Counted from the first letter of the stretch, positions 25,101 through 30,974 are shown. The stretch is DNA of 64,000 nucleotides from an uncultured Candidatus Rokubacteria bacterium (GCA_963734175.1 CAVTGC010000004.1:7875-71874); one strand, 5' to 3'. The notes: generated by a model not told the origin, from the sequence alone. Program-made: numbers and translations.

Positions 25101-25620
25101 CGTCGAGCGCCTCGCCGTCGGCGAACAGCATCCACGAGTAGTCGTTGCTGTGGGTGCCGACGTACACGCCGGTGCGGCTTCCGGCCAGGCGCTCGGGCCG
25201 CTGCCCGGCGTCCTCCAGCGCCTCCGAGGCCACCTCGAGAAACAGGCGCTGCTGGGGATCGAGGCTGGCCGTCTCCCGCGGCGAGATCCCGAAGAACGAC
25301 GGCTCGAACTCGTCGAGCCCGGCGAGAAAGCCGCCCCAGCGCGTGGACATCCTTCCCGGCGTCTGCGGATCCTCGGCGTAGAAGGCCTCGGCGTTCCAGC
25401 GATCGGCCGGCACCGGGCCGATCGCGTCGACGCCGTCGCGCAGCAGGCGCCAGAAGTGGGCGGGCGTCGCGGCGCCCGGGAACCGGCAGCCCATGCCCAC
25501 GATCGCCAGCGGCTCGCGGCCGGCGGTCGTGTCGGGTGCCGAGGGCGTGGTCAGCCGCGCCGCCAGCAGTGCCTGGCGCTCGGGGGACAGGGCGGCGATG
25601 CGCCGGGCGAGGTCACTCAT
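19170..25620 (-). CDS. Modular type I PKS subunit B: KS-AT-DH-ER-KR-ACP (fully reducing); one frameshift after DH at ~21950-21975 in this assembly
   Basis: Preferred start is the ATG at 25620 ([23 protein letters not shown]...[13 protein letters not shown]), overlapping the upstream stop in ATGAGTGA. The track's upstream ATG at 25638 is the alternative. [33 protein letters not shown] plus [21 protein letters not shown] plus [10 protein letters not shown]. After the frame change ...[16 protein letters not shown] continues in ORF 19170..21905: ER ([20 protein letters not shown]), KR ([11 protein letters not shown]), ACP ([13 protein letters not shown]). The C-terminal tail ends at 19170, 8 nt before the subunit C start. 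Confidence 0.85.
20405..21353 (-). other. Enoylreductase domain of PKS subunit B (approximate)
   Basis: [25 protein letters not shown] ... [30 protein letters not shown]. Confidence 0.55.
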
Positions 25621-28600: not shown

Positions 28601-30974
28601 GAAGGTTCCGCACCCAGTACGCCGGATCGAGCGCGGCGCCGTCCTCGAAGGCGCCGGTCACCGTCGAGTAGAACGGCACCGCGGCCGCGCCCGGGACGAG
28701 CCCCTGCAGCCCGGCCAGCAGATCGGCCCGCAGGCCGTCGACGTGCGGACTGTGCGAGGCGACATCGACCTTCACGCGGCGGCAGAAGACGCCGCGGCCC
28801 TCGAGCTCACCGAGCACCTCGTCGAGCGCCGCCACGTCGCCGGAGATCACCGTGGAGCGCGGGCTGTTGGAGACCGCGATCGACAGCCGGTCCTCGCGCC
28901 CGACCAGGGCCCGGCGCGCCTCGTCGAGCGAGAGCTCGACCATCGCCATGGCGCCGCGCCCGGCGATACCGCGCAGGAGCCGGCTTCGCGTGGCGATGAC
29001 GCGCGCGGCGTCCTCGAGAGACAGCGCGCCGGCAACGTGGGCGGCCGCGACCTCGCCCATGCTGTGGCCCACGACGACGTCCGGCTCCACGCCCCACGCC
29101 CGCCACAGCGCGGCCAGCGAGACCTGGAGGGCGAACAGGATCGGCTGGGCGACGTCGATCCGCTCGAGCCCGGATCGCGCGGCGTCGGCCGTCAGCTCGT
29201 CGAGGAGCGACCAGTCGACGTGCGGCGCCAGCGCGCGCTCGCAGCGCTTCAACGCCTCGGCGAAGGCCGGCTCGCTCGCCAGCAGCGCCCGCCCCATGCC
29301 GAGCCACTGCGAGCCCTGCCCGGGGAACACGAACGCCACCCGGGGCCGCGTGGGTCCCGGCCGGCGCGATACCAGGCCGGGGCGGGACTCGCCGCGTACG
29401 TATGCGCGCAGGCGCTCGGCCATCTCGCTCCGGCTGGCCCCCACCACACCCAGCCGCTCGGCGTGGGCCGTGCGGCGGGCGCTCGCGGTGTAGCACAGAT
29501 CGTCGAGCGCGACGGTCGCTGGATCGCGCTCGAGCAGCGCGATCCAGCGCTCGGCCAGGGCGCGCAGCGCCTGGGGTGTCTTGGCGCTCAGGGGCAGCAG
29601 CCGGACGCCGCCGTCATGGCGGGGATCGATCGACGGGGACGCGGCCGGCGCCGCCTCCAGCACGACGTGGGCGTTGGTGCCGGTCACGCCGAAGGAGTTC
29701 ACCCCCGCGAACGCCGGCTGGAACTCGGCCGGCCACGGGGTCGCGGTGCGCGCGACGACGAGCGGCAGCGTGTCCCACGGGATGCGGGGATTCGGCTCGG
29801 AGAAGTGGAGGCTGGGCGGGACGAGCCGATGCTCGAGGCACAGCACCGTCTTGATCAGACCGGCGATGCCGGAGGCCGCCTCGGTGTGGCCGATGTTCGT
29901 CTTGATCGAGCCCGTCAGACACGGCCGCCCGGGCGCACGCCCCTCGCCGAGGACCTCGCCGAGGGCGGCGAGCTCGACGGGATCGCCCACCCGCGTGCCG
30001 GTGCCGTGGGCCTCGACGTAGCCGACGCGGCCCGGCTCCACCCCCGCAGCCTGGTACGCCCGGCGCAGCATGGCAGCCTGCACGGTCGGGCTGGGCGCGA
30101 CCAGCAGCCCGCTGCCCTGCCCGTCGTTGTTGACCGCGCTGCCGCGGATCACGGCGCGAATCGGATCGCGATCGGCCAGCGCGCGCGCCAGCGGCTTGAG
30201 GAGCACGAGCCCCACCCCTTCGCTGCGGACGTAGCCCGAGGCCCGCGCATCACCGAATCGGCAGCGGGCGTCCGCCGAGAGCATCGCGGAGCGCGAGTAC
30301 CCGATCGTGATGTGCGGTTCCAGGATCAGGTTCACGCCACCGGCCAGCGCCATCGCGCTCTCGCCGCTGCGCAGGCTCTGGCAGGCCAGGTGCACCGCCA
30401 CCAGCGAGGACGAGCACGCGGTGTCGATCGTCAGGCTCGGCCCGCGCAGATCGAAGGCGTAGGACAGCCGCCCCGACGCCGCGTAGCGGCCGCCGCCGGT
30501 GGTGACGTAGAGATCGACGTCGGGCGAGGCGCCGAACATCTGCCCCTCGTACTCGCTGGTCCACATGCCGACGAAGACGCCGGTGGCGCTGCCCGCCGCC
30601 CGCTCCTGCGTCACGCCCCCGTCCTCGAAGGCCTCCCAGGCCACCTCCAGGAGCAGGCGCTGCTGGGGATCGATGCACGCGGCCTCTCGCGGCGAGATGC
30701 CGAAGAAGGCCGGCTCGAAGCGATCGATCTCGGGGAGGAAGCCGCCCTGACGCGTCACGATCTTGCCGCGCGTGCCGGGCGCCGGGTCGTAGAAGGCCTC
30801 GACGTCGAACCGCCCGGCCGGCATGTCGGCGATGGCGTCGACTCCGCCCAGCACGAGCTGCCAGAGCGCCTCGGGGTCGGCGGCGCCCGGGAAGCGGCAC
30901 GCGAGGCCGACGATGGCGATGGGCTCGAGCGCGGGGGCCGCGGCCGCCCGCGCGGTCACACGATCAACCGTCAT
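25613..30974 (-). CDS. Modular type I PKS subunit A: KS-AT-DH(degenerate)-KR-ACP; first subunit of the assembly line (no loading domain, no N-terminal docking helix); C-terminal docking tail recovered only after correcting a 1-nt frameshift at a G5 run (~25729-25733)
   Basis: ATG at 30974 (ATGA overlap with the TE stop). MTVDRVTARAAAAPALEPIAIVGLACRFPG: only ~17 aa precede the KS core. [41 protein letters not shown] plus VDVASHSP (YASH-like). The DH-like region lacks HxxxGxxxxP and has HPEALGAGL in place of [47 protein letters not shown]. Switching frame at gagggggcgcc gives ...[35 protein letters not shown] with TGA at 25613-25615. Confidence 0.85.
27419..28262 (-). other. Degenerate (probably inactive) dehydratase-like domain of PKS subunit A (approximate)
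   Basis: The region aligns positionally with the DH domains of subunits B, D and E. It reads GHPWLTAHVRPAALGPG and CALHPEALGAGLRV where the active DHs have [13 protein letters not shown] (catalytic His) and HPALLDAxxQ (catalytic Asp). Confidence 0.5.

Follow-up and report, generated by a model that had tools for sequence, protein, structure and literature searches.

A probable first module without a loader: how a polyketide-peptide assembly line of an uncultured Rokubacteria-like bacterium may be primed

How does a modular polyketide synthase (PKS) begin a chain when nothing stands ahead of its first condensing domain? Chain initiation sets the polyketide starter and is a main engineering handle on these enzymes. 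Textbook assembly lines having in-line acyltransferase (AT) domains (cis-AT lines) begin with a separate loading module, and the canonical initiation types are a loading acyl carrier protein (ACP), a KSQ ketosynthase and a GNAT loader (PMC8302727). The question is raised by a 64-kb stretch of DNA from an uncultured Rokubacteria-like soil bacterium, which we call the window; coordinates are positions in it unless a contig is named. The window is very GC-rich (66-78% GC per 2-kb window), and its housekeeping proteins belong to 90%-identity clusters in which Candidatus Rokubacteria proteins from metagenome-assembled genomes also occur. A type I PKS, delimited by Pfam and by tblastn searches with its own domains, occupies 1-30974 on the minus strand. 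This PKS is part of a hybrid with a nonribosomal peptide synthetase (NRPS); the entire line is ~56 kb long, and the release domain stands at its distal end. Its subunit A (25631..30974, minus) is a single module composed of ketosynthase (KS), AT, degenerate dehydratase (pseudo-DH), ketoreductase (KR) and ACP domains plus a C-terminal docking tail. A natural, conserved, multi-subunit line here begins with a competent condensing KS where the textbook line has a separate loading module.

Subunit A stands first, has no loader in cis and carries a competent condensing KS together with an extender-type, methylmalonyl-like AT, and all of these traits are conserved. The chemistry of priming is what we infer. 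The most likely reading, which we put forward tentatively, is that the hybrid line has no loader, that A is truly its first module and that this module primes itself.

Subunit A and its upstream boundary

The start of subunit A reads MTVDRVTARAAAAPALEP|IAIVGLACRFPG, the bar marking the start of the KS core. The leader (30921..30974, minus) is composed of 18 non-helical-looking residues and lacks the helical segment of ~30-40 residues that serves as an N-terminal acceptor docking helix. In contrast, 37 residues precede the KS core in subunit B, 38 in C and ~37 in E and F (counted from the translations), and these leaders are helical and of the LSPxKxALL type. The original prediction had given about 17 residues for A and 29-36 for B-F; the contrast and the helical nature of the other leaders stand, whereas the counts become 18 versus 37-38. 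As A is the sole subunit without an acceptor docking helix, it is very probably the first module of the line, and with nothing docking onto it the absence of such a helix would be expected.

Directly upstream of A is a type II thioesterase (TEII) gene (30971..31747, minus), the first gene of the operon, the stop codon of which overlaps the ATG of A as ATGA (30971-30974) in the junction ...GTCCGTCGATGACGGTT.... The thioesterase (TE) is full-length by its Pfam Thioesterase match (168.6 bits, covering profile positions 2-222 of 226), and its sequence, in which the motifs GHS90MG, GGEDDP and GTH226FF are present, shows nothing unusual. Most simply it would be an editing enzyme that acts on mis-primed carrier proteins, the role described for TEII proteins (PMC8302727). 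Beyond it lies a divergent intergenic region of lower GC content (31748..33075) that forms the 5' boundary of the operon and has no loader, ACP or phosphopantetheinyl transferase (PPTase). The open reading frames (ORFs) of 31748-33075 gave no Pfam or NCBIfam match, 31748-33380 contained no PP-binding or AMP-binding match, and neither a riboswitch nor a leader turned up when the 5' region was scanned against Rfam. The sigma-70-like promoter that a promoter scan placed in 31748-33075 points away from the operon. A loading module at or beside the first KS, whether AT-ACP, CoA ligase (CoL)- or adenylation domain (A)-ACP, or GNAT, was thus not found: there are 18 residues and then the abutting TE gene, as the original prediction had it for this operon.

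The PKS genes contain at least six frameshifts in A-E (25730-25742; ~21800-21900; ~17340; ~14300-14400; ~3590-3640; ~1836-1850). Given so many frame errors, a hidden N-terminal extension of A was a real possibility that needed a test. A second assembly of the same population, L001, is 98.3% identical to the window over 14.4 kb with 25 gap openings, none of which lies between 31943 and 30714, and hence the TE/KS junction is identical in both assemblies. Moreover, the TE gene fills the upstream DNA, and the eight orthologues of A (54-91% identity, 1774-1791 aa) are intact and start 5-22 residues ahead of the KS core. The original prediction had conceded that an upstream indel might conceal such an extension; none was found.

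The same data bear on the idea that the locus is an artefact or a decayed cluster, its frameshifts being those of pseudogenes or its N-terminus being mis-assembled. The frameshifts themselves argue for this, and one of them, near 1.84 kb, is apparently common (from gene calls) to L163, a contig that overlaps the window, and would be either a systematic error or a real mutation. Against it, the GC content at third codon positions (GC3) stays at 0.87-0.95 in the coding frames across the PKS, the catalytic motifs are all intact, and the D, E and F genes of the JGI relative L083 (77% nucleotide identity) are uninterrupted. Taken with the intact A orthologues and the indel-free junction, these data make decay or artefact very improbable; from the GC3 values and the uninterrupted L083 genes the frameshifts are most likely long-read assembly indels.

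One such error falls at the 3' end of A. The uncorrected ORF (25617-30974, minus) encodes 1785 aa, but an indel cluster (25730..25742, minus), at which L001 has 11 additional bases, shifts the last ~35 codons and is a probable assembly error. The stop at 25613/25617 and the arginine-rich C-terminus of the window ORF are artefacts of this cluster, and the 3' end originally placed at 25613 must be withdrawn. In L001 and in P0001 the subunit ends ...GDDAELDRLLTEIQGLSDEEVRRQLAN..TRDE*, which puts the true stop at ~25631, directly followed by the N-terminal docking helix of B. In the corrected frame A has a donor docking tail (25631..25729, minus) of the form ..ELDRLLxEIExLSDEEVRRLL.., which matches L001 and all orthologues and suits B.

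Pfam places the KS of A at residues 17-391, the AT at 548-853, the KR at 1398-1574 and the ACP at 1674-1738. The KS (29475..30926, minus; Pfam ketoacyl-synt, 301.8 bits) has an intact Cys187-His323-His363 triad within the motifs DTAC187SSS, EAH323GTGT and NIGH363. A KSQ domain has Gln (or Ser/Tyr) in place of the cysteine and is found without reductive domains; A retains Cys187 and has a KR plus the pseudo-DH. Hence, the original view that this KS keeps its cysteine and both histidine motifs and is not a KSQ was borne out. The AT (28395..29339, minus) has the methylmalonyl-like motifs RIDVAQP, GHSMGE (GHS638MGE) and VDVASHS and keeps the carboxylate-binding Arg at Ser+25. Its closest solved relatives are DEBS AT5 (291 bits) and AT3 (287 bits), versus 164 bits for the malonyl AT of CurL. 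From its sequence it looks like an extender AT of the methylmalonyl type and not a dedicated starter AT. The KR catalytic region (26235..26804, minus) has the NADPH motif GGxGxxG (GGLGALG), the LDD of B-type reductases and the catalytic Tyr of YAAAN, and the ACP (25740..25979, minus) has the serine of GLNS1702L. Subunit A therefore has what characterizes a cis-AT extension module: an in-line AT with GHSxG and Arg, a KR with NADPH motif and Tyr, and an ACP with its Ser.

The exception is the DH-like domain (27330..28322, minus), on which two Pfam DH models score 17-18 bits, below their curated cut-offs. In an alignment the DHs of B, D and E have YLADHxxxGxxxLPA and HPALLDA, whereas A has DRPCVAAGEITRLAAAA and HPEALGAG. 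Aligned with these DHs and with the orthologues, the domain of A lacks HxxxGxxxxP, the Asp of HPALLD and the GxxxGPxF stretch; where an active DH has the catalytic His of the first motif and the Asp of the second, A reads DRPCVAAGEITRLA and HPEALGAG, respectively. This agrees with the original description of a catalytically degenerate DH reading HPEALGAG(L) for HPALLDA. Given the KR motifs and the lost DH motifs, module A is expected to leave a beta-hydroxyl, as had been proposed. One conceivable use of a hydroxyl left close to the starter is as a handle, for instance when the terminal TE closes a macrolactone.

The far end of the line and related ketosynthases

Contig L163 overlaps the window from 4264 to 1 with 98.7% identity and extends the cluster leftwards by ~20 kb. 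In L163 subunit F (KS-AT-DH-KR-ACP) is followed by four NRPS modules of condensation, adenylation and peptidyl carrier protein domains (C-A-PCP) that end in a TE (L163 10001-23273), then by an Sfp-type PPTase (L163 23263-24033; counterpart in L002 at 9300-10004) and an ABC exporter. The same order is found downstream of F in L083 and L164. The line runs from the TEII through six cis-AT PKS modules, A-F, to four NRPS modules plus TE, with the PPTase and the ABC exporter after them. As the PKS feeds four NRPS modules, the product is predicted to be a polyketide-tetrapeptide. No loader was found beyond F in L163, L164 or L083. A loading didomain in this position would have undone the original prediction, and what stands there instead is NRPS, TE, PPTase and exporter genes.

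In most relatives the Sfp-type PPTase lies between the TE and the first KS; in the lineage of the window it lies at the far cluster end past the NRPS genes, and for this reason the TE directly abuts KS-A. The last NRPS protein of L164 (NRPS 10001-21455) has a TubC_N docking domain. A scan of metagenome contigs with an NRPS fragment returned generic NRPS loci only.

Related loci were obtained by scanning species-representative genome contigs with the pseudo-DH/KR region of A as query. These genomes contained no close pseudo-DH orthologue, the best full-length matches being ~35% identical, but in many of the loci a PKS comes immediately after a TE gene, which is often accompanied by a PPTase gene. 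Such loci are found in Rokubacteria (L004), Acidobacteriota (L012, L044), Chloroflexota (L013, L049, L053) and Acidimicrobiales (L055, L074), and their first genes have 2-25 residues before the KS core. In a neighbour-joining tree of 56 KSs, KS-A clusters with the KSs that head the synthases of the related loci, whereas the second and third KSs of those loci mostly cluster with those of window subunits B and C. A protein-representative search with KS-A, ranked by summed score, was dominated by giant multi-KS proteins.

The KSs of this group have C[RK]FGD in the place of CKxFD, a motif whose Phe is invariant among the other KSs (45 of 45). Further group residues are NNDG (for NQDG), GDPVE (for GDPIE), W138, G162-R163-Y164, Y226, Y307 and T364, of which KS-A carries NNDG, GDPVE, W138, GRY162-164 and Y226 along with CRFGD, which makes it a member of the C[RK]FGD group as defined here. 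Because some non-signature KSs are up to 60-62% identical to KS-A, percent identity does not separate the group, which is drawn from the tree and the motif signature. The first-module ATs of the group share RIDVxQP, GHSMGE and VDVASHS and keep the carboxylate-binding Arg. In L078 (1352-2641) a Blastocatellia KS with CKFAD, NNDG and GDPIE is intermediate between the group and ordinary KSs.

Across all fetched loci, 15 of the 16 C[RK]FGD KSs have no ACP within 1.5 kb upstream, compared with 47 of 147 other KSs (Fisher p 2e-6), and a TE or PPTase lies directly upstream of 9 of the 16 versus 1 of the 147 (Fisher p 6e-10), both p-values being indicative only, since the loci are kin and were picked by similarity to A. 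Among 548 independently retrieved proteins, nine of ten signature KSs start at residue 22 or earlier. There were also 17 KS-first proteins without the signature, and hence the signature implies a KS-first protein but not the reverse. Protein P0026 (2536 aa) has C[RK]FGD in its second KS as well as in its first, and the second-module ATs of L049, L055 and L074 have GHSMGE, with VDVASHS also present in L055 and L074. Thus, the signature didomain can be duplicated in-line and is not strictly bound to position 1.

The first-module DH has a proper HxxxGxxxxP motif in L012, L013, L049, L020, L035, L040 and L044, and in some of these relatives a split KR match implies an enoylreductase (ER) as well. 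It is degenerate in 8 of 8 orthologues of A, the Asp at the HPALLD position remaining only in P0007 and P0066, and is gone entirely in the Rokubacteria relatives P0010 and L004. With the DH proper in several relatives and decayed in the lineage of the window, the dead DH is a loss specific to that lineage, in a first module that is otherwise reducing.

The upstream genes of these loci also bear on whether a loader encoded elsewhere (an AT-ACP, CoL-ACP, KSIII or an ACP served by a fatty acyl-AMP ligase, FAAL) hands the starter to KS-A in trans. Split clusters are known, and the sequence read was the 64-kb window plus ~20 kb of sister contig, so that a distant gene would have escaped notice. We nevertheless consider a trans-acting loader unlikely. 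Subunit A has no N-terminal docking element for such a partner, and in 16 related loci of several phyla no loader gene is conserved, although TE and PPTase stay linked to the KS. None of the 16 has a FAAL or free ACP, and the two with an adenylating-enzyme gene within ~7 kb upstream have it on the opposite strand in one case and, in the window, in a separate operon. Moreover, a cluster that does use a loader keeps it close. In L058 (3987-7382), from a Solibacteraceae metagenome-assembled genome, an aromatic (phenylalanine-ammonia-lyase-like) ammonia-lyase (PAL) gene and an A-ACP didomain gene lie directly upstream of the KS. This cassette looks like an explicit cinnamate-type loader and provides a contrast case, its KS being outside the C[RK]FGD group.

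The association with TE genes raises another candidate, that the TEII-like alpha/beta hydrolase doubles as an acyltransferase delivering the starter to ACP-A or KS-A. Its translational coupling to A through ATGA and the TE or PPTase found directly upstream of 9 of the 16 signature KSs would fit, and the external thioesterase SrfD reportedly stimulates initiation of surfactin synthesis. Against this are the unremarkable sequence of the TE, the six signature KSs that have no TE within 1.5 kb upstream, and the editing role that is usual for TEII proteins, whose genes often lie at the edges of clusters (Heathcote et al. 2001, as cited in PMC8302727). On balance such a role seems improbable.

The remaining subunits and neighbouring genes

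Subunit B (19170..25638, minus) has an N-terminal docking helix and a KS-AT-DH portion separated by the frameshift near 21.8-21.9 kb from ER-KR-ACP. Subunit C (14782..19177, minus) is KS-AT-cMT-ACP, where cMT is a C-methyltransferase domain, with the frameshift near 17.34 kb within its AT. Subunit D (7095..14787, minus) is KS-AT-DH-cMT-ER-KR-ACP, the frameshift near 14.3-14.4 kb falling within its KS, and subunit E (415..7098, minus) is KS-AT-DH-cMT-KR-ACP with frameshifts near 3.6 kb and 1.84 kb. Of subunit F the window has the docking helix and the first part of the KS (1..418, minus), truncated by the window edge and continued in L163. The ATs of C, D and E are malonyl types with HAFH, and that of B (23041-23964) has AVSYAFHS (YAFH). 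The motif N/GYAFHS is also found in the second-module ATs of L006, L013 and L018 and in the third-module AT of L049. In the window the C stop and the D N-terminus share one frame (14782-14790); the C and D genes of L083 are in different frames and have a 4-nt overlap. The start codon of D is thus ambiguous in the window, where one more small indel may be present.

Upstream of the operon, 34603-38512 (minus) is an apparent small operon encoding an NMT1-like binding protein, an acyl-CoA synthetase and a MaoC/FAS1-type dehydratase. It is kept in L001, is not beside the orthologous PKS clusters and probably belongs to unrelated catabolism. We considered its acyl-CoA synthetase (35904-37430) as a dedicated starter ligase and rejected it: the protein is generic, scoring under all NCBIfam cut-offs, its operon is separate and lies beyond an oppositely oriented binding-protein gene, and the orthologous clusters lack the synthetase gene. 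Three orthologous contexts (L002 and the JGI contigs of P0016 and P0010) have TE, PPTase and KS-first PKS in this order with unrelated genes upstream, and no adenylating enzyme was found in any of the three. A 233-aa ORF that abuts the TE in L001 was likewise rejected as a missing PPTase or ACP, having no Pfam or NCBIfam match and no similarity to the L002 PPTase.

Further off, a methylmalonyl-CoA mutase domain is spread over two overlapping ORFs in different frames at 53088-56360 (profile positions 4-253 and 261-512), probably owing to another frameshift, and the enzyme could be a source of methylmalonyl-CoA for AT-A. Two domains, one of a branched-chain amino-acid permease and one of a periplasmic binding protein, are fused in a long ORF at 45016-47655, and the Pfam match of an ABC ATPase ORF at 43037-43942 stops after profile position 38; these may reflect further frame errors, in transporter genes nearby.

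Priming of module A and comparison with known systems

The hidden docking tail of A, the PKS-NRPS hybrid nature of the line and the placement of KS-A and AT-A in a multi-phylum group of chain-initiating didomains go beyond the original prediction. Self-priming of module A can be conveniently divided into several steps. AT-A, of the methylmalonyl type, would load ACP-A, and the Cys-retaining KS-A would then decarboxylate the unit on ACP-A to a short acyl group, probably propionyl; a less likely alternative to this step is that the AT would transfer a short acyl-CoA. The acyl group would be back-transferred to Cys187 and a second extender unit condensed onto it, after which the B-type KR would reduce the product and the decayed DH would leave the beta-hydroxyl. 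We favor the decarboxylative route because it needs no missing component, and over AT-mediated starter loading because AT-A looks like an extender AT. Condensing KSs decarboxylate extender-ACPs at a low rate, and DEBS lacking its loading didomain is reported still to yield product by this route. No loader is known from KS-first iterative PKSs or from fungal highly reducing (HR) PKS-NRPSs either.

A serious rival, only a little less plausible than self-priming, is direct priming of the KS. Here Cys187 would be acylated by an acyl-CoA or by an acyl-ACP of the fatty-acid synthase, drawn from primary metabolism; the chain could be short or long, as in KS-first PKSs resembling mycocerosic acid synthase (MAS), and the product would be lipopeptide-like. 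It would have the same anatomy as self-priming, with no loader, no docking helix and an intact Cys, and it is consistent with a polyketide-tetrapeptide made beside an exporter, with the strong match of the KS-AT to that of MAS among solved relatives (677 bits) and with a generic acyl-CoA synthetase 5 kb upstream in the window. However, that synthetase is in a separate operon past a divergent gene and is not found with the orthologous clusters, and FAAL or free ACP genes occur in 0 of 16 related loci. Moreover, module 1 is fully reducing in many relatives, as if the line built its alkyl chain from a small unit, and the group-specific bulky residues fall in loops that would belong to the acyl pocket.

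Several points weigh against self-priming. Dedicated decarboxylating loaders are KSQ domains, whereas KS-A has kept its Cys, and an editing TEII would be expected to hydrolyze the very propionyl- or acetyl-ACP on which self-priming depends. Any functional meaning of the C[RK]FGD signature is conjectural, and the statistics that tie it to loader-less starts are indicative, as noted above. The bulky W138, Y164 and Y226 would suggest a small acyl pocket on an assumed, not structurally derived, correspondence of their positions to those of FabF. The loader search covered the 64-kb window and ~20 kb of sister contig, out of a 1.1-Mb contig and its genome. Finally, decarboxylative priming and direct acyl-CoA acylation of the KS are not separable in silico, and so the original statement that several priming routes remain candidates stands.

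A broader proposal is that the C[RK]FGD KS and the RIDVxQP/GHSMGE/VDVASHS AT together form a distinct type of self-priming chain-initiation module, in which a Cys-retaining KS would make its starter by decarboxylating the methylmalonyl unit carried by the ACP of the module, or accept a short acyl-CoA, before it condenses. Horizontal transfer, often in the form of a TE-PPTase-module-1 cassette, would have carried such modules between uncultured Rokubacteria, Acidobacteriota, Chloroflexota and Actinomycetota. We regard this proposal as speculative and rather unlikely as it stands. Were it true, cis-AT lines would have one further natural start beside loaders of the AT-ACP, KSQ, ligase-ACP and GNAT kinds. 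A signature that marks self-priming would define a compact and portable initiation module for engineered PKSs, and also a sequence rule for annotating loader-less clusters, which genome-mining tools at present flag as incomplete. Should the signature mean nothing of the kind, what is left is a correct but ordinary annotation, that of a KS-first PKS-NRPS whose DH has decayed. By itself, an inactive DH in a KS-first PKS is a familiar annotation puzzle; the added weight comes from the conserved loader-less start and the KS/AT signature across uncultured soil phyla. Phrase searches of the literature for loader-less PKSs gave almost nothing usable.

Known systems resemble module A in part. KSQ-AT-ACP loading modules also place a KS-like domain and an extender-type AT first, with a starter thought to come from (methyl)malonyl decarboxylation. 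In these KSQ domains Gln replaces the active-site Cys and there is no condensation (Bisang et al. 1999, as cited in PMC8302727). In contrast, KS-A has Cys187 and both His residues, and module A has a KR, full extension function and no separate loading ACP. Clusters in which a KS-first synthase is loaded by FAAL plus ACP or by A-ACP, such as fatuamide and L058, similarly have TEII and PPTase at the head of a hybrid and then the first synthase. The head of the fatuamide cluster is a TE-ACP-PPTase-ligase cassette (PMC11877528). Its free ACP and adenylating enzyme are what is missing here and in the related loci.

The mycobacterial MAS-like PKSs (PDB 5BP1, 9D2Y) are likewise KS-first; they lack an N-terminal loader, and their AT is of the methylmalonyl type. 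MAS works iteratively, from long-chain acyl starters that a FadD-type ligase activates. Unlike MAS, the present cluster and its relatives have no linked FAAL, the sole adenylating enzyme nearby being generic and not conserved. Among the KS-first iterative PKS-NRPSs are myxochromide MchA, the polycyclic tetramate macrolactam synthases and the fungal HR-PKS-NRPSs LovB and PsoA. Like the MchA, LovB and PsoA type, the PKS described here has a KS in first place and no loader, and passes its chain to an NRPS; unlike those single iterative modules, it has six collinear modules on six docking-linked subunits ahead of the NRPS. The KS-AT of A scores ~483 bits against LovB and PsoA and ~750 bits against modular KS-ATs.

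A further parallel is DEBS. Among solved relatives the KS-AT of A matches DEBS module 5 best, as its AT is nearest to DEBS AT5 and AT3, and in loader-deleted DEBS a Cys-retaining condensing KS and a methylmalonyl-type AT also start chains without a loader. The DEBS case is an engineered and inefficient bypass; here, where we infer the priming chemistry, the loader-less state is natural, is kept in the orthologues and is accompanied by a KS/AT signature.

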